A stretch of DNA of 64,000 bases from assembly GCA_951406725.2 (NCBI GenBank), contig OX597828.1:31682001-31746000 (forward strand), read 5' to 3'. This document shows, in pieces, positions 2,246-30,256 of the stretch (position 1 is its first letter; every line of letters starts with the position of its first letter). The position numbers and the translations under genes were made by a program. This DNA is from Octopus vulgaris. Taxonomy: Eukaryota. Below the pieces are notes generated by a model that was given only the letters and a program-made list of their open reading frames with translations, had not been told where the DNA came from and did no database searches.

Positions 2246-2848
2246 ACAATTTTGCGCACATATTAATAATGTACAGAAAATTGTGTGTATATATATTATG
2301 TGTGTGGTATATATGAGTGTGAATCTATATGTTAAACAGACACGTCAGTAAAATTTCTTCATATCACTTACTGGAAATCTATGGCAAGTGTTCGAGAGTT
2401 GTACAGAGGCGTCATGCCTAAATGGTAAAGACAATTGGAAACGCTCCCAATATTCACAAAAACTATTATTCATAAAACACAGAGAGGTTCAAAATGCTCA
2501 AGACCTATTTTATTGCTTGTATAATTTTGTCGCATATTTCTTTTTAAATAACTATACTTCCCCAAAAATGTGTATAATCACACACAAGTAGTTATCAATG
2601 AAACACACGTCTCAACATATTTTTTTTCTTCACAGCAAGAGAATACAGTTCACATGATATATCTTTGCAATAATCCGCGTTTTCGACTATGCTACATTCG
2701 TCGTGATGAATAGAATAAACATTTATTAATGTCCGTTGTATATGTAGAAATATAGGTTTACATAATAAATATAACTCGCCTATTGATTTCTAATACATAT
2801 TATATTTCATTAAAGTTAAAGGTCCGTACTATCACTGACGTTGGCTTC

Positions 2849-2850
<2 letters not shown>

Positions 2851-2892
<42 letters not shown>

Positions 2893-2921
2893 TATATATA
2901 CATATATACATATATGCATAC

Positions 2922-3008
<87 letters not shown>
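2851..3008. repeat. (TA)n(TG)n microsatellite
   Basis: Direct observation. Confidence 0.95.
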
Positions 3009-3009
<1 letters not shown>

Positions 3010-3530
3010 ATTCAGCCCAAAATATACTTTAACATAAATTTCAGACAGTTTTATGGACTAAATCCTTTGCTGCTGCACAGTATATTCTGGAATTGATTTT
3101 TGTTCATGTTTAATGAATTTTCATAGATCTTCTTAACAAATGCATTCCTATATTTCTAGAACATAGTTGCATTACGCATGAATGAAGTGTAGACGTGAAC
3201 TTGTTTGTTGTGCTATTGAAGTAATCTATATTTATACTTAAGAAAATATGAGTTTACTACAATCAAACCCACGCACATGTGTATGTGCTTATATATGCAT
3301 GTGTATATGTATACATGCACACATATATACATATATGTATGTATAGATATAAACATTATTTGTATACATATATGTATGTATAGATATAAACATTATTTGT
3401 ATACATATATGTATATATATATAGGTGTGTGTTGTGTGTGTTTGTCTATATACGTATATGCTTATATGCATGAATATATATGTGTGTATAAATACACATT
3501 ATGTGTATATATATATATTCTTTTATATAT

Positions 3531-3700
3531 CTCAGTCATTTGACGGCGGCCATTCTGGAGCACCACCTTTAATCGAGCAAATCGCCCACAGAATATATTC
3601 TTTCTAAGCCTAGTACTTATTGTATCAGTATCATTTGCCGAAATGCTAAGTTACAAGAAGTAAACGCACCACAATCGGTTGCCAAGCGATGGTGGGGAGA
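3531..3700 (-). mobile_element. SINE family B, 3' half
   Basis: cagtcatttgacggcggccattctggagcaccacc matches the family B tail. Confidence 0.75.
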
Positions 3701-3929
3701 CTATATATTATTTATATATATATATATATCACTCTGTGTGTGTGTGTGTGTGACCTACTTATAATCATTTAAATTTTCCTTTGAAGGAAGAACTGATTTC
3801 TAACAAATATACAACGCTCCATGTTTTGAATGTAGATAACCAAGACGATGTCGCATTTTTTAAACCTTAGAAACGTTTTGCATAATTTTACTGCTTTTTT
3901 GTTTCTCACTTTTGAAATTATCCATAGAA

Positions 3930-5170
3930 AGAATTGTGACAGTCCTTTAAGACATACATCTTCACAAACACGAAATAGTTTAGCAGATTGTGTTTGTAAT
4001 GTCCGAATCAGTTGCTTGATATCTTTTATCTGAAAATGCAAGCCCCTCCACCCTGACTGATAGGCATTTACTTATAAATCAGAGTACTCCATTTTGTATT
4101 GGTATAAATGTAAACTTCTAATGCAGATATAGAAGCTGGCGTTTCGAATCAGTTGTCCAAAGTTATCTTCTTGCCTTTGATTTTCTAAGTGATATCGACA
4201 TCAGTAGTGCATCCGACCTCTATGACGGCATCCTTTTTCCTGTCTGTCCCAAACAACAATAAACGATCAGTTATTGTTATACTTGGCAGATATTTTTATG
4301 GGAATGAACCACCCGTATTTCTTGTGCTGATATTTATGAACGTATTCAAAGACAGGAACAATCCTCTATATTTATTCCAGGACAATCTTTTTTTATTCCT
4401 GAATGGCATTGTATATTTTGTTGTGACAACGTATTATCGCATAGGGAGGTAGTGCCTTGATGCTGCTAATCACATGTGTTATGTCTTCCACGGAAATATG
4501 AAAGGATCCACGTTTACAGTTTCATCTTGGAACTCTAAGGACTGTACTGTCTCATTTGTCGATTAGGTATTTAGTATCTCATCTCGAATAGTTGGATTGC
4601 AAATGCATAGCTTTGGGAGTGGGATGCGACCTAAGAGTAACAAGTTCAAAAGAGACTTCGCTTCACATCGATCTTAGAATCTTCTTCAAGTTCTGAGCAA
4701 ACATTACCAAGCATGGTCTTTCTTTGGTATGCCGAGCGTTTCACCTCCTGGTCTTATTTGGGACATGCTGGTCCGGCTGACTAAGAATAGTATAGGAGGA
4801 GGTCATTGGAAGAGAGTACTTCCAACACGAGGAGCTCTCTTCCAACACGTAGGAAATTGTTTTCTTCACTTTCCAGCACCAATTTAACGTATTTAATTTT
4901 GGTACTGTTGCATAGCAACTGCTAACCGAGAAAGGTTATGCGACAATCGAAGCCTGCTGCACTGAACACAAGCATCTACCTATTTTATCTTTCCTATGGT
5001 AGAGCCCGTGGATATCATTATTTCTGTGGAGATTTCCAGTTGATGTTAGAATATTTAGGGTTTTAATATCTATAGAATGTATTTTTTCTACAGGGCTATC
5101 GGGTATCCCAAATGTTGGAATCAGCACTGACACTGAAATTGTATTGTTGTAAGAGGAGAGTCTAGAAGCG
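3930..5170 (-). mobile_element. Highly decayed RLE-type non-LTR retrotransposon (R4/Dong-like), 3' part
   Basis: Minus-strand fragments occur in the expected order. RT thumb: VLIPTFGI...IDIKTLNILTSTGNLHRNNDIHGLY...GRCL (ORF 4936-5133, parallels the 12445-13755 ORF). Then SYAFAIQ, the zinc-knuckle remnant VEDITHVISS, and the RLE remnants IVVWDRQEK, VIEVGC, EDNFGQLIRN and KFTFIPI. Many stops and frameshifts. Confidence 0.7.
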
Positions 5171-7283: not shown

Positions 7284-7337
<54 letters not shown>

Positions 7338-7537
7338 TAATGATAAATATCAAAGTGAGTTATATACAGTAGCGGTAACACATTGTGACGTATTTTTGCC
7401 ATTTCTATATGGCTAACCCTTAAGGGGGTATGCTACTGTAGTTTTTAGCCCCAGGAGGACACACTCCTCCAGCTGGCCATAGACACACTTTCTGTGTCCT
7501 GTCAGTATTTGCAAAGGGAAGTCATCCTTCCCGTCTT

Positions 7538-7607
7538 CAACTTATGATACACACGGACTCGAGTTTCGATGTATTGACCTCTCGTCAGCGTGTGACAATC
7601 ATAGTTG
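7538..7607 (-). ncRNA. Type I hammerhead ribozyme, copy 1
   Basis: Minus strand reads caactatgat-tgt-CACACG-CTGACGA-GAGG-tcaata-CATC-GAAA-CTCGAG-TC^CGTGTG-t-atcataagttg. It has an intact CUGANGA/GAAA/GUC core, a 6-bp stem I with a bulged extension, stem II, and a palindromic stem III. Predicted cleavage is between 7556 and 7555. Confidence 0.92.
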
Positions 7608-7890
7608 TCGGCGAGAATTAGATTTCCTTCACAAATACTTATACTTTTTCCAGCGTCCACTGTCGCTGATATTGAAAAAGTGAAATCAAACAATGATAAA
7701 TATCAAAGTGAGTTATATACAGTAGCGGTAACACATTGTGACGTATTTTTGCCATTTCTATATGGCTAACCCTTAAGGGGGTATGCTACTGTAGTTTTTA
7801 GCCCCAGGAGGACACACTCCTCCAGCTGGCCATAGACACACTTTCTGTGTCCTGTCAGTATTTGCAAAGGGAAGTCATCCTTCCCGTCTT

Positions 7891-7960
7891 CAACTTATGA
7901 TACACACGGACTCGAGTTTCGATGTATTGACCTCTCGTCAGCGTGTGACAATCATAGTTG
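7891..7960 (-). ncRNA. Type I hammerhead ribozyme, copy 2
   Basis: Identical to copy 1. Confidence 0.92.
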
Positions 7961-8242
7961 TCGGCGAGAATTAGATTTCCTTCACAAATACTTATACTTT
8001 TTCCAGCGTCCACTGTCGCTGATATTGAAAAAGTGAAATCAAACAATGATAAATATCAAAGTGAGTTATATACAGTAGCGGTAACACATTGTGACGTATT
8101 TTTGCCATTTCTATATGGCTAACCCTTAAGGGGGATGCTACTGTAGTTTTTAGCCCCAGGAGGACACACTCCTCCAGCTGGCCATAGACACACTTTCTGT
8201 GTCCTGTCAGTATTTGCAAAGGGAAGTCATCCTTCCCGTCTT

Positions 8243-8312
8243 CAACTTATGATATACACGGACTCGAGTTTCGATGTATTGACCTCTCGTCAGCGTGTGA
8301 CAATCATAGTTG
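8243..8312 (-). ncRNA. Type I hammerhead ribozyme, copy 3
   Basis: As copy 1, except C>T at 8255 removes the outer pair of proximal stem I. Confidence 0.9.
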
Positions 8313-8594
8313 TCGGCGAGAATTAGATTTCCTTCACAAATACTTATACTTTTTCCAGCGTCCACTGTCGCTGATATTGAAAAAGTGAAATCAAACAATG
8401 ATAAATATCAAAGTGAGTTATATACAGTAGCGGTAACACATTGTGACGTATTTTTGCCATTTCTATATGGCTAACCCTTAAGGGGGATGCTACTGTAGTT
8501 TTTAGCCCCAGGAGGACACACTCCTCCAGCTGGCCATAGACACACTTTCTGTGTCCTGTCAGTATTTGCAAAGGGAAGTCATCCTTCCCGTCTT

Positions 8595-8664
8595 CAACTT
8601 ATGATATACACGGACTCGAGTTTCGATGTATTGACCTCTCGTCAGCGTGTGACAATCATAGTTG
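8595..8664 (-). ncRNA. Type I hammerhead ribozyme, copy 4
   Basis: As copy 3, with the same variant at 8607. Confidence 0.9.
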
Positions 8665-8946
8665 TCGGCGAGAATTAGATTTCCTTCACAAATACTTATA
8701 CTTTTTCCAGCGTCCACTGTCGCTGATATTGAAAAAGTGAAATCAAACAATGATAAATATCAAAGTGAGTTATATACAGTAGCGGTAACACATTGTGACG
8801 TATTTTTGCCATTTCTATATGGCTAACCCTTAAGGGGGATGCTACTGTAGTTTTTAGCCCCAGGAGGACACACTCCTCCAGCTGGCCATAGACACACTTT
8901 CTGTGTCCTGTCAGTATTTGCAAAGGGAAGTCATCCTTCCCGTCTT

Positions 8947-9016
8947 CAACTTATGATACACACGGACTCGAGTTTCGATGTATTGACCTCTCGTCAGCGT
9001 GTGACAATCATAGTTG
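8947..9016 (-). ncRNA. Type I hammerhead ribozyme, copy 5
   Basis: Identical to copy 1. Confidence 0.92.
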
Positions 9017-9299
9017 TCGGCGAGAATTAGATTTCCTTCACAAATACTTATACTTTTTCCAGCGTCCACTGTCGCTGATATTGAAAAAGTGAAATCAAAC
9101 AATGATAAATATCAAAGTGAGTTATATACAGTAGCGGTAACACATTGTGACGTATTTTTGCCATTTCTATATGGCTAACCCTTAAGGGGGGATGCTACTG
9201 TAGTTTTTAGCCCCAGGAGGACACACTCCTCCAGCTGGCCATAGACACACTTTCTGTGTCCTGTCAGTATTTGCAAAGGGAAGTCATCCTTCCCGTCTT

Positions 9300-9369
9300 C
9301 AACTTATGATACACACGGACTCGAGTTTCGATGTATTGACCTCTCGTCAGCGTGTGACAATCATAGTTG
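9300..9369 (-). ncRNA. Type I hammerhead ribozyme, copy 6
   Basis: Identical to copy 1. Confidence 0.92.
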
Positions 9370-9651
9370 TCGGCGAGAATTAGATTTCCTTCACAAATAC
9401 TTATACTTTTTCCAGCGTCCACTGTCGCTGATATTGAAAAAGTGAAATCAAACAATGATAAATATCAAAGTGAGTTATATACAGTAGCGGTAACACATTG
9501 TGACGTATTTTTGCCATTTCTATATGGCTAACCCTTAAGGGGGATGCTACTGTAGTTTTTAGCCCCAGGAGGACACACTCCTCCAGCTGGCCATAGACAC
9601 ACTTTCTGTGTCCTGTCAGTATATGCAAAGGGAAGTCATCCTTCCCGTCTT

Positions 9652-9721
9652 CAACTTATGATACACACGGACTCGAGTTTCGATGTATTGACCTCTCGTC
9701 AGCGTGTGACAATCATAGTTG
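9652..9721 (-). ncRNA. Type I hammerhead ribozyme, copy 7
   Basis: Identical to copy 1. Confidence 0.92.
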
Positions 9722-9759
9722 TCGGCGAGAATTAGATTTCCTTCACAAATACTTATACT

Positions 9760-10041
<282 letters not shown>

Positions 10042-10050
10042 CAATCCAGT

Positions 10051-10383
10051 GTGTGAGGGCGCGTGGCTTAGTGGTTAGGGCATTCGGCTCATGATCGTAA
10101 GGTTGTGAGTTCGATTCCCGGCGACGCGTTGTGTCCTTGAGCAAGACACTTTATTTCACGTTGCTCCAGTCCACTCAGCTGGCAAAAATGAGTTGTACTT
10201 GTATTTCAAAGGGTCAGCCTTGTCACTCTCTGTGTCACGCTGATTATCCCCGAGAACTACGTTAAGGGTACACGTGTCTGTGGAATGCTCAGCCATTTAC
10301 ACGTTAATTTCACGAGCAAGCTGTTCCGTTGATCGTATCAGCTAGGACCCTCGTCGTCGTAACCGGCGGAGTCTTTTAAAAAA
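10051..10383 (+). mobile_element. tRNA-derived SINE (family A), full length with TSD
   Basis: A box TGGCTTAGTGG, B box GAGTTCGATTCCC, CORE-like tgtgtccttgagcaagacac. 11-bp TSD agcaatccagt at 10040-10050 and 10384-10394. Confidence 0.9.
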
Positions 10384-12308: not shown

Positions 12309-14516
12309 TATGTTTGACTTTTGCTTTATATTTGTACAAGTTGGCTCCAAGTCTCACCCAGAGACCTCACGAGACAACAGGGTTGGAAGTTCATGTTGTT
12401 GTTATGCCTAGTGTGCCATATATTTGGGGGGTCGGGGTGTTGTACTAATGAATGTCTAAAAAAATTTTTTTTTTTTTTTTTAAACCGAAAATTATGTTTG
12501 TTTTAGAAAGTATTTTGCGTAGGATATGAGCAGTTCCTATGAGCACTATCTTTTGAATTTCTGCCATTTTTGGGTTTCCTGGTATCTGAGTTAGGTAGCT
12601 ATCTGCCCCTTTTGCTATCATTCCCAGGGCACCTATGGCAACAGGTATTGTTTTAGTCTTCAGCTTCCACATTTTGCTGATTTCTATTTCAAGATCTTTA
12701 TACTTGCTCAGTTTTTGGTAGGTCTTGACAGATACGTTTATATCGATTGAGACAGTCATATCAATGAGGAGGCATGTTCTTTGTTTGAAGTCTTTCAATA
12801 TGATGTCTGGCCTATTTGCATCTATCTTTCTGTCAGTTTGAATGGCGAAGTTCCAGAGGAGTGAGATGTGGTCATTTTCAAGCACTGGGGGTGGTTTGTG
12901 TTCCCACCAGTTTTTTTCATGGGGCAAATCCAGGTTTTTACAGATTACCCAGTGAATATATTGTGCAGCTCTATCGTGCCTGTTGAGATATTCTGTAGGC
13001 GCTAGAAGACTGCACTTGGAGACCACATGGTCAATGGTTTCATTTTGTGGCTTGCATACACGACACGTTGGACTGCTTCTGATCTTTAATATGTTGGCCT
13101 GGTAGTTTCTTGTTGGTAGGCATTTATCTTGAGCTGCTATGATAAACCCCTCTGTTTCAGATTTTAAGCCAGAGGCCATTAGCCATTGATGGGTCAGGGC
13201 TTTGTCAACATCTGCATTATTTGCTCTCTTTGGGTATTTGCCATAGAGAGGTTTTTCTTGCCATTTATCATTCAGAATATCTAAGGCCGCAGATTTAGCA
13301 CGGGTTTTCATGCGCTTAGCTTTTTCTGTGCCTGTTTCTTGTATGTCTATCTCTAATTCCGAAATTTGTTGTATTCGGAATTCACTTAGATATTCCTTTG
13401 CCTGTTTTGTTACTGAGTATGATGCTTTCTTGTTTTCATGTTTTGAGACAAGTTTTAACATCCAGTCCTCAGAGTTTTTCAGGTAGGTGTCTAGGCCAAT
13501 TGTAACAATCTTCATTGTTATTGCCAGTTGTAAAAGTCCACGGCCTCCCTCTTTTCTCGGCAGATAAAGTCGTTCTGTATCTGCCTTAGGGTGGTGCATT
13601 CTATGCATTGTCAACAGTTTTTGTATTTTTCTGTCAAGATTACATATTTCAGTAATTGACCAGTTAACGATACTGAAACTGTAAGTCACGACTGGTATGG
13701 CTAATGCATTGATCGCTTCGATCCTGTTTCTCGCATTCAGCTCTGTCTTGAGCATTGCTCTTACTCTGCGATAGCATTCTCTCCTATCCTTTCCTTCATC
13801 TCTGAATGCCTTATTCCTTCTCCTTCAATTACCCCTAGATACTTGTAGTTCTCTGCTGGGTCTAATTCTTTTATGACATTCTGCTGGTCAAGGTTAACGT
13901 TAGATGTTTCTGTCATTTTTCCTTTGATAAAGGTAGCTTTTGCGCATTTATCGAGGCCAAATTGCATTCTGATGTCATCACTGAATTGTTTGACAATCGC
14001 TAGTAAGCCCTTGAGTTGTTGGTCATTTTTTGCAAAGAGCTTTAAATCATCCATGTAAATGAGATGATTTATATTTTCATCAAACATTTTATATCCGTAC
14101 TGCGCATCATTGAGCAGTTTTGAGAGAGGTATTAAGGCTAAACAGAAGAGATGCGGTGATAGTGAGTCACCCTGGAAAATGCCACATGAAATTTTTACAT
14201 CACCAGCATTTAGAGATTCATTGTCACTGTTCAAAGTTAGTGTGGTTCTCCATGATCTCATACTTACAGACAAAAAGTTTCGCAGAGCAGGTGCTATCTT
14301 ATACATTTCTAGGCATTTATTAATCCAGCTATGTGGTAGGCTATCAAAAGCCTTTTTATAGTCTATCCAGGGTATTTATAAGTTTTTGTGTCGTTTGTGA
14401 CAATCTTCTAAGATCATCTTATTGATGAGTAGTTGATCTTTACAACCGTAGGATCCACGTTTACATCCTTTCTGTTCATTAGGGAATATGCTGCTGTCTG
14501 TCAAAAAAATTATAGG

Positions 14517-27834: not shown

Positions 27835-29530
27835 CTATTATAGGTTTGGGCCATTTTTGGCCCAGGCCATGTCTAACTTAATAGTACCACCTGGTGAAGT
27901 CTTTCAAGTCAGAATTTGGGCACTATGGCCCACTCAAGTAGTGAGTTATTGTTTACAGAGACATATCCGGGTGTAGGAGGTTTATCCGGGATTACTTGAT
28001 GGAAACTGTCCAAACACTTCTTGAACATTATAGGGTGTGTTTCTGTTTTAATGTGTTTTTGTGTAATGTTAAAGAGAGTTGGGCCAATTGAGGTGAAATA
28101 ATTGTGCCGTATTGTTGTTATATGATGAGAGTGCGATTTCTGTTGTGTGCGGATGGCACGGGGCCCAAGCCTTGGATGTACCTTAAAGGTGATGCCAACA
28201 TCATTTGGGCAATGCTGATGGAATATTTTCCACATCATGCAGATGATGTAGCGTTCACGGCGACGTTGGGGAGAATAAAGTTTTATCTTTTTTCTAGTCG
28301 ACCCCAATAGTCGAGACCTGTCTTGCCATCTATCTTTTTTGTGATTGACCTTTGAGGTGCTTCATCTTTTATGATACTTTGTTTTGTGTGGGGAGACCAC
28401 AGTGGACAACAGTATTCAAGGTGGGGTCGGGCAAAAGTGGAGAAGAGAAGGATGATGGTGTGGATATCTCTCGACTGGATAGTTGAGAATCCAGGAACAC
28501 ATTCTGCGGGCCATGTCAACTTTGGTGTTTATATGAGTGGCCCAGCTTATGCTGTTGTCCACAATTACTCCCAAGTCTCTGATGTTGTTGGATGCCACGC
28601 GAGTTTCACCTTAAAGAAGGGAGTATGGAAGTTTTAGGGCATCCTCTTTTCCAAAGTGGATTAACTCGAATTTATCCTCGTTCAGCAGCATATTGTTCTT
28701 TTCTGCCCATTGGATAACAGCCAGTAGATCTTACTGAAGGCATGTCCGGTCACTCGCCTCAATTATGACCTTCTGGAGCTTGGAATCATCTGCAAAGATT
28801 TTTATGTTACTGTGTTTGATGATGTCATTAAAGTCATTAATGTAGACGATGAAAAGAAGTGGGCCCAGCACAGTGCCCTGCGGAACGCCACTACTGACTT
28901 TGGCTGGGGTTGATTTTACTCCTTGAGATCTGTCTGTCAGGAAACACTTGATCCATTTCAGTAACGTTCCAGAGACACCAATGTTGGATAGTTTTTTCAA
29001 TAGGATCTTGTGATCAACCCTGTCGAAGGCCTTCCTGAAATCAAGGTAGATGACATCGGTGTTGGAGCCCTCACCCAAAGCTCTCAAAATATCATCAAAG
29101 TGATGCAGGAGCTGCGTTAGGCAGTCCCTTCCATTACGGAACCCATGTTGGTTAGAGATCAGCCGTCTGTTGCTTTCCAGAAATTGGATTATTCGAGATC
29201 TCACCACCCTCTCAAATACCTTGATGATATGACAGGTGAGTGAGATCGGACGGTAGTTCACTGCAAGGGACTTGTTTCCTTTTTTGAAAACTGTGACAAC
29301 AGACTGGGACAGAAAGTCTTTAGGAATATAGCCAGCATCCAGTGAGTTTCTCCACAGATTAGCAAGGGGAGATGCAAGTTGGTGTCGACACACCTTCAGG
29401 ACACAAGCAGGGAACCTATCGGGGCCTACTGCTGAATTCGGTTTTATTTCGTTTATCGCCGCTAAGACATCAGAGGCACCAAACGTTATGCCCGATATAG
29501 TGTGTTGGGGGTTGACATCACTGATACAGC
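27835..29530 (-). mobile_element. 5'-truncated CR1/L2-group (Crack/Daphne-like) LINE with RT pseudogene
   Basis: RT motifs GPDRFP, NYRPISLT, QHGFR, YLDFRKAFDRV, GVPQGTVLGPLLF and FADD. C-terminal DLGVIVD, RPHLEYCCPLWSP, LYSPQRRRERY, GPTLFN and NSLLEW. Stop at 28731 plus frameshifts. The 3' end abuts (TA)n. Confidence 0.92.
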
Positions 29531-30256
29531 CCAGTATATATACATACACCCATATACGCATATGTATGTTTGAATATATATACTCATATACGCATTTATA
29601 TATGTGCATATATGTATATATATACACATACTCATATATGCATAGGTATGTTTGTATAAATAAATAAATTAATATATATGTGTGTGTATGCGTGTGGGAT
29701 GAGACGGTTGAACATTATGCATGTATCCTGTTCCTTTACCAGGTATTGATCGCTGTAGGGATATAGGAGAATACATTTCATTTCGGAGCAGTCCACTGAG
29801 ACTGAACGTAAAACCTTTCGGTTTCGTCCTCTTTGTGTTTAGCCCCTTGTGGGTGGTAAAGAAATAGGTTTCAATGCGAGCTGGAATGGAAGTACAATAA
29901 AAATTATATCAAGTTACTTCCTAAGAATAAGAGAAACACAGGAATACTATGATTTATGATCCGTGTGAATAGTTATATGTATATGCACGCGCACACACAC
30001 AACCATACACACACACGCACATGTATGTCAATATTTCACTGGAAGAAATATAAGCGAAAACCGTTTTACGTTATTCAAAAACGCAGACATAAATTGAAAT
30101 TTAACTGCAGAAGATGATGCTGTTGTTTGTTTTTTTGTTTTTTTGCTATAATTGCTTTGCAGATTTTAATGATTGAAATAAAGGGAATGTGTCTTAACGA
30201 AGCTGTGAATTTCCTCAAATTTCATTGCATGACTAACAGTACCTACTCTGGTGCGA

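Follow-up and report, generated by a model that had tools for sequence, protein, structure and literature searches.

A young non-LTR retrozyme array in Octopus vulgaris with probably weakened hammerhead ribozymes and Penelope-type insertion ends

Non-LTR (long terminal repeat) retrozymes of metazoans are hammerhead-bearing tandem repeats described from mussels (350–390 bp), corals, and axolotl (330/350 bp), and the main text of that description, which is without the words ‘inverted’, ‘target site’, and ‘rolling’, only proposes Penelope-like elements (PLEs) as their mobilizers (PMC7229834). A study of vertebrate retrozymes (Li, Clavereau & Pollet 2026, bioRxiv 10.64898/2026.07.22.740005) reaches the conclusion of PLE dependence from co-occurrence and from homology to pseudo-LTRs (pLTRs) in Xenopus; in the account it gives there is no mollusc, arrays of up to seven units are the usual limit in 75% of families, and local amplification is proposed. 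In what these two sources and PMC7761336 say on the matter, the mobilizing enzyme and the role of circles as transposition intermediates are proposed, not shown. PLE insertions are themselves recognized by 5′ truncation, an adjacent inverted copy, a one-ended tail of 30–40 bp, and a bias for (TA)n (PMC8557442), with the tail described as the interval that separates two internal start sites of the reverse transcriptase (RT), which serve both strands of the target (PMC11167929). Here, we compare with these systems a tandem array of hammerhead ribozyme units at positions 7339–9759 of a 64,000-nt stretch of the Octopus vulgaris genome (hereafter, the window; C15:31682001-31746000 of the 2.8-Gb assembly GCA_951406725.2, inside a chromosome-scale contig).

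The seven-copy array announced by the original prediction was recovered by tandem-repeat analysis (7339–9759; period 352, 6.9 copies, 99% matches), and it contains seven minus-strand type I hammerhead cores, 352–353 bases apart, with all core nucleotides intact. The cores lie at 7550–7594, 7903–7947, 8255–8299, 8607–8651, 8959–9003, 9312–9356, and 9664–9708, with predicted cuts after GUC at 7556/7555, 7909/7908, 8261/8260, 8613/8612, 8965/8964, 9318/9317, and 9670/9669, respectively. Unit lengths are, in order, 353, 353, 352, 352, 352, and 353 bp plus a partial unit of 305 bp, and the units are nearly identical, as had been claimed: 3 differences were found in 2347 compared positions (0.13%; homopolymer and end regions are excluded here and in the family-wide divergence and variant counts below). 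Five distinct unit types occur overall, with variants common to units 1–2 and to units 3–4; hammerhead copies 3 and 4 have a helix I G-to-A change in common. No credible protein is encoded in the unit (longest stop-free frame 84 aa; a single ATG frame of 38 aa), which agrees with the first description, nor does it hold an RT plus GIY-YIG frame of its own, as an autonomous PLE would. With a GC content of 0.41 (8001–10000), the array fits the retrozyme pattern of a non-coding tandem unit of ~170–400 nt and GC <45%. It is not of the plant LTR type, in which a unique core is flanked by two LTRs that carry type III hammerheads, whereas the octopus motif is type I and the units are purely tandem.

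The element extends beyond the array. Counting the first base 3′ of the cut as phase 1, the long arm (7339–9759, minus strand in RNA sense, 6.88 units) has its 5′ end truncated at phase 263 and meets, head-to-head, an inverted arm of 174 bp on the plus strand (9759–9932, phases 351 to 171), which lacks a hammerhead core. This second arm starts within 2 nt of the cut site (phase 351) and carries the array’s alleles at phases 66, 135, and 149. Both outer ends lie in (TA)n microsatellites, at 7287–7339 on the left (26.5 copies, period 2), into which the long arm runs, and at 9932–10040 on the right (54.5 copies, period 2). The long arm ends at phase 216 (site B, see below) and the inverted arm at phase 171 (site A, about phase 173); the stretch between the two sites is present at the left end only (7339–7382, minus strand), in the manner of a Penelope-type tail. 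The inverted arm and the flanking (TA)n tracts, like the helix II mismatch described below, had been overlooked in the original prediction. From its sequence, the array is one young, non-coding insertion of the non-LTR retrozyme type.

Canonical type I hammerheads of animals have a 6-bp helix I, a 4-bp helix II, and a helix III of 1–2 bp with a palindromic loop, and are thought to cut as dimers (PMC4209133). The octopus motif has this layout, with a helix III of 2 bp. A loose core pattern matched the window nine times, compared to 1.08 matches expected from shuffling, and seven of the nine matches are the array hammerheads. Against Rfam Hammerhead_1, the check that had been suggested at the outset, the first copy (7550–7594) aligned over the whole model (30.0 bits, E 7.4e-6) and fell below the gathering score of 34, so a gathering-score scan of the window returned no hits; the allele of the wider family scores 32.2 bits, and routine annotation would therefore overlook the family.

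The ribozymes had been called intact, and this holds for the core nucleotides. However, helix II carries an A instead of a C in 7/7 window copies (at 7570 in the first), giving a G.A mismatch at the third pair (GAGG/CAUC). By comparison, 93 hammerhead copies, from 38 of 39 other loci, have GAGG/CCUC. All seven exact matches to the window motif in the assembly lie at this locus, and among the 472 exact cores found genome-wide with any base allowed at this position, the first 100 listed all have C. The nearest relatives, on C31, have other alleles in common with the array and an intact helix II. The predicted fold of the window motif (−5.7 kcal/mol) is 6.6 kcal/mol weaker than that of the family allele (−12.3 kcal/mol), so that ‘intact’ was an overstatement, and the helix II hairpin alone is predicted no longer to fold (0.0 vs. 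−4.4 kcal/mol). Short helices II can retain activity, and the window hammerheads are for this reason called weakened, not dead. Based on these predictions, it is quite likely that the window allele is clearly weaker than the family allele. The proposal that the locus is a likely active producer of six unit-length RNAs found no support, given a private mismatch in an allele found at no other locus.

A genome search with the unit, also suggested earlier, uncovered a dispersed family (169 matches in the best 40 of 2756 candidate places; 472 exact occurrences of a 28-base core genome-wide). Insertion ends were read at 94 loci, comprising the window, 39 other best-scoring loci (biased towards long arrays), 48 loci drawn from the first 100 listed cores on C1–C3, and six chosen for their likeness to the window’s alleles; removal of two exact duplicates left 92. 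In these loci, 3′ ends cluster at two sites separated by about 45 nt, A (phases 168–175) and B (phases 213–222). Head-to-head arms are present at 53 of the 92 loci, where 47 pair an A end with a B end, none is A/A or B/B, and six have one unclassifiable end (47/47 classifiable loci; binomial p 1e-14). The 39 single-arm loci end at A (30), at B (6), or elsewhere (3). The first 80 loci include 117 ends at A or B, of which 112 continue into (TA)n; 5′ ends lie at scattered positions, and no tail-to-tail arrangement occurs. Divergence within the family’s arrays (128 differences in 38,784 positions, 0.33%) bears out the claim of a young, retrozyme-type family. Arm lengths had a median of 385 bp and a maximum of 1800 bp in a census of 44 loci on C1–C2; longer arms exist elsewhere (6.0 units at L035, 5.1 units at L037), and the window’s 2421-bp arm is the longest seen, with a probability of 0.006 per arm under the census length distribution. 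Two pairs of loci, L114 and L115 on C1 and L182 and L183 on C31, show identical retrozyme junctions ~1 Mb and ~2 Mb apart, and are either segmental duplicates or assembly duplicates.

The family thus shows the marks of PLE-mobilized sequences, i.e., a one-ended tail, 5′ truncation with an inverted copy, and a (TA)n target, and the pattern of its ends indicates that it has very probably been mobilized by a PLE, which is firmer ground than the ‘thought to be mobilized’ of the original prediction. The likeness is closest to Neptune-type endonuclease-bearing (EN+) PLEs, which have a head-to-head, 5′-truncated inverted copy, a one-ended tail, (TA)n targets, and two RT starts (PMC8557442, PMC11167929). 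Unlike these, the octopus unit has no open reading frame (ORF), a tail of 43–46 nt, and a canonical rather than a minimal hammerhead, and what these two sources say of PLE insertion ends does not include a strict rule by which each insertion has one A and one B end and comes from a single template haplotype. Site A falls at the loop of a predicted hairpin inside a multi-branch fold, as the anole PLE start lies in an AC-rich stem-loop (PMC11167929); the fold around this site is a candidate RT recognition element. Downstream of the ribozyme (window 7385–7510, minus strand; A1 columns 82–234), the unit forms several hairpins, with compensatory changes among families in 7 of 24 pairs. Consensus folding of 10 divergent copies gave four downstream hairpins and missed the ribozyme because several of the 10 rows are without it.

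Candidate partners were found in a GIY-YIG search of the genome (PLE searches scored the best 150 of 6136 and the best 150 of 14,481 candidates), which yielded many 781-codon open frames with RT and GIY-YIG domains and a CX4CxxC linker of the Neptune or Nematis type. Copies of this 781-codon family end at two sites 38–40 nt apart in (TA)n, and 14 of 16 copies, chosen because their frames are intact, are within 0.7% of the majority sequence, which points to an age similar to that indicated by the 0.33% divergence of the retrozyme arrays. A second PLE family has a tail of about 42–45 nt and a young branch at 97–99%. Two results speak against a direct link: a survey of 41 + 30 loci from at least three PLE families turned up no autonomous element that resembles the unit in sequence and no pLTR sequence common to both (in the Xenopus study cited above, such homology was found), and tail similarity to the two candidate families is insignificant (p 0.14 and 0.99). 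We therefore regard mobilization by a PLE as strongly indicated, with candidate partners that are matched by age and architecture, not by sequence. The 781-codon frames belong to a very young Neptune-type family (L091–L106; e.g., L104:1318–2754 and 2676–5018) with many intact copies. Its members also contain an overlapping upstream frame of 479 codons without a Pfam match above the cut-off, and a 3′ end with a hammerhead-like motif (UUGAUAA core, palindromic helix III). Canonical PLEs are described as single-ORF elements.

Several apparent physical links between retrozyme and PLE sequences were rejected. At L111, two cores 3.25 kb apart, which resembled the pLTRs of an autonomous element, are a duplicated piece in a simple satellite without a PLE frame, and a related fragment 1.3 kb behind a PLE frame at L107 is a separate insertion in its own (TA)n. 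The retrozyme–PLE junctions at L145, L123, and L179 are not template switches either: the piece in contact with the PLE lies tail-to-tail with it on the other strand, an arrangement that nested insertion into a common (TA)n tract plus a deletion would produce, and the PLE parts at L145 and L123 are 3–6% from their nearest sampled kin. The junction at L040 adjoins the truncated 5′ end of another PLE family. All four apparent chimeras are better read as nested insertions.

The haplotypes of the arms bear on the template. Nine polymorphic sites allow 337 comparisons between the arms of a locus, of which 327 agree, compared to an expectation of about 95 disagreements, and 10 of 46 loci show any disagreement, compared to 36.5 in permutations (minimum 28; the set included one duplicate pair). 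Between units of the same arm, 570 of 586 comparisons agree. Rare variants fixed in all copies number 23 in 19 loci, 12 of them (9 loci) across both arms, and the other variants are single-copy (153) or partial (6), the partial ones including cases in the three longest loci (window, L035, L135). Junctions at the cleavage site are free of indels in 185 of 185 cases, and 5′ ends lie ≤5 nt from the cut in 3 of 129 cases, compared to 4.0 expected. The last result also means that the start of the window’s inverted arm at the cut cannot serve as proof of in vivo cleavage. Given clean junctions, one haplotype per locus, and no excess of ends at the cut, a single monomer circle is the simplest template, and we moderately favor a circular monomer as the usual one. 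Some observations pull the other way: L032 and L038 look like mosaics of two haplotypes and 16 of the 586 comparisons within arms are mixed, results that one pure circle could not produce; the common variants of units 1–2 and 3–4 in the window imply some local duplication; the purified anole PLE used unprocessed RNA in vitro, with the hammerhead not required (PMC11167929); and eight of nine frog retrozyme dimers did not cleave in the experiments given in bioRxiv 10.64898/2026.07.22.740005.

In one alternative, a PLE would have mobilized the family from uncut, multimeric read-through RNA, with no circle and with the hammerhead a passenger or acting at another step. Unprocessed RNA is the main substrate of the anole PLE in vitro, and in that account no RNA-seq ends fall at the cut site (PMC11167929). 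The mosaic arrays would also fit, a sister family (family B, below) moves with altered ribozymes, and a weakened helix II would favor a long uncut template for the window array. However, a new mutation arises in one unit, whereas rare variants are repeatedly fixed in all units and in both arms and the nine polymorphic sites are homogeneous within loci, so that a monomer bottleneck is needed. On a multimeric template, arrays would moreover shrink in each round, yet arms of 5–7 units exist among sources with a median of 385 bp; no parent array with the window allele is present in the assembly; and the ribozyme pairs covary. We consider this alternative unlikely.

More doubtful still is a model in which unequal crossing-over or slippage expanded a short PLE-type insertion in place, producing a minisatellite that the helix II change, arising after insertion, later swept; a route of local amplification is proposed in bioRxiv 10.64898/2026.07.22.740005. 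The variants common to adjacent units, the occurrence of partial variants in the three longest loci, and the low per-arm probability of the window arm would be explained, although a genome with several hundred arms should contain a few of such length. The excess of single-copy over partial variants shows little homogenization after insertion, variants fixed across inverted arms cannot stem from tandem duplication, the array is only 0.13% diverged internally, and the sweep would need both original copies replaced, since the helix II change is also in the terminal partial unit. For the same reason, this change most likely already sat on the template, although the inverted arm stops short of the helix II position and cannot place it there. 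The sequence of the window array suggests about two local unit duplications after insertion. The weak ribozyme as the cause of the long array found no support, this being a single case, and L035, with intact motifs, totals 7.8 units compared to 7.4 at the window.

A linear self-cleaved monomer, on which the RT, having reached the 5′ end, jumps to the 3′ end of that molecule or of a different one, would account for the start of the window’s inverted arm within 2 nt of the cut and, by jumps between molecules, for the mosaics. It is very improbable, as 5′ ends are not enriched at the cut and all 185 junctions are without added or lost bases; template jumps usually leave extra bases. That the copy number of seven is an assembly artefact, with the identical neighbors (units 1–2, 3–4) duplicated in assembly, is hardly credible in view of five distinct unit types, arms of 6.0 and 5.1 units elsewhere, and the position of the locus inside a chromosome-scale contig.

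Sister families show what is conserved in the ribozyme. Family B (L196–L225; 356 bp) is identical to the window family in 259 of 360 columns and has the same A and B ends with looser, AT-rich targets, and family C (L226–L255; 356–357 bp; 40 scored places 96–100% alike over a 202-base query) forms head-to-head arms ending in (TA)n. More distant relatives exist at L101, L107, L135, and L211. Among seven sequences of the window and sister families, both partners are changed in 7 of 19 ribozyme pairs. The covariation score was reached by 0 of 500 shuffles, and slid controls gave 0–2 such pairs (the sequences are related, and these figures are not a probability). In family C, U3-A8 replaces the core pair C3-G8; this variant is on record for PLE hammerheads (PMC4209133). 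In family B, the helix III palindrome changes from UCGA to UGCA with its self-complementarity kept (−11.1 vs. −10.7 kcal/mol), and in family C this self-complementarity is lower (−5.5 kcal/mol). The covariation indicates selection on the ribozyme, and the sequences give good reason to expect a functional ribozyme in the family. Less favorable to this view, the cores of family B are mostly altered (CCGAAGA in 15 and CUGAAGA in 6 of 29 motifs read), and a mismatch at the helix II base is found in family B, which still spread, and in most copies of family C. The retrozyme clan thus keeps the ribozyme fold yet tolerates weak versions. At L200, a family B copy is closely followed, ~330 bases behind the matching stretch, by an open frame that resembles the beginning of what we take to be an Hsp90.

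Among 20 public data sets matching the unit, 14 are only guessed to be RNA and none is recorded as RNA. In four of these guessed sets, contigs cover the unit and wrap round, a joint expected alike from a circle or from tandem DNA. Their helix II position has the family base at all depth in three sets and in 164/181 in the fourth; strand, ends, and level are not readable from them.

The best explanation of the whole, in which we have reasonable confidence, is a non-autonomous non-LTR retrozyme that borrows the RT plus GIY-YIG protein of a Neptune-type PLE. A tandem copy would be transcribed, and adjacent hammerheads would pair through their palindromic helix III and excise a monomer of 352–353 nt, which a host ligase would circularize, as the family fold, the covariation, and the published relatives suggest. 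The PLE protein would then nick both strands of a (TA)n tract and prime inside the RNA at two sites ~45 nt apart, A on one strand and B on the other, where the observed ends fall. Each cDNA would run round the same circle for a variable length, and joining of the two 5′ ends would leave a head-to-head insertion of one haplotype, the architecture and haplotype sharing that the loci display. The window array was most likely copied from a template with an already weakened helix II and then gained about two local unit duplications; it would be among the longest products, with no daughter in the assembly.

A bolder interpretation, which we put forward tentatively, takes the loci as a fossil record of rolling-circle, double-primed integration and the window array as a ribozyme-weak ‘cheater’ at a dead end. 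A dimer of the PLE protein would start one cDNA at A and the other at B, making every complete insertion an A/B palindrome of one molecule. In a double hammerhead, where each cut is served by the partner core, a unit with a crippled helix II might be freed by an intact neighbor, circularized, and written into the genome seven times.

Within the window, no host gene was recognized in a scan of 136 open frames (small exons would escape), and no host gene or promoter source was found there for the minus-strand read-through that the original prediction assumed. The only recognized protein families are broken LINE-type RT remnants (RVT_1, zf-RVT) at 12445–14375 and 28731–29714 on the minus strand. 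Directly behind the right (TA)n, a repeat with a tRNA-like head (10041–10370, plus strand), presumably a SINE, points away from the array; ARAGORN found no tRNA in the window. Nothing points to a host function of the locus, which is probably a selfish insertion in weakened form.

Compared to the metazoan retrozymes of PMC7229834, the octopus family shares a non-coding ~350-bp tandem unit, a GC content of ~41%, one canonical type I hammerhead per unit, a 2-bp helix III with a palindromic tetraloop, dispersed dimers to multimers, and PLEs in the same genome, and the helix II base mismatches of its sister families recall axolotl HHR_Amex2. It differs in that the sequence family is new and in the kind of evidence, as cleavage and circles are shown there, while insertion ends are mapped here from sequence alone. 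Chlamys MRC1 is likewise a non-autonomous PLE partner with multicopy head-to-tail insertions, but it belongs to a green alga and to the clade with an N-terminal endonuclease, has 3′ sequence in common with its autonomous partner, and has no canonical hammerhead in the description given (PMC8557442). With respect to the local amplification proposed for vertebrates, the ends and haplotypes argue that octopus arrays may arrive largely ready-made. In the literature, we found no description of this family or of any cephalopod retrozyme, although Repbase, Dfam, and supplements were outside the search and could list the family; in its account of hammerheads, the giant squid paper merely counts 235 Rfam hits (PMC6962438). 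The kind of element is already known from a mollusc, the mussel, and the PLE link had been proposed (PMC7229834). New here are evidence of PLE-type double priming on a single template, read at the level of insertion ends, and a natural weak allele.

The octopus genome therefore brings together a young retrozyme family with base-readable ends, intact candidate PLE proteins that match it in age, two or more sister families, and an allele with a weak ribozyme that can serve as an internal control, and these resources make the mobilization question testable with the published in vitro PLE assay (PMC11167929). The strict pairing of A and B ends from one haplotype also bears on how PLEs form their tails and inverted ends.

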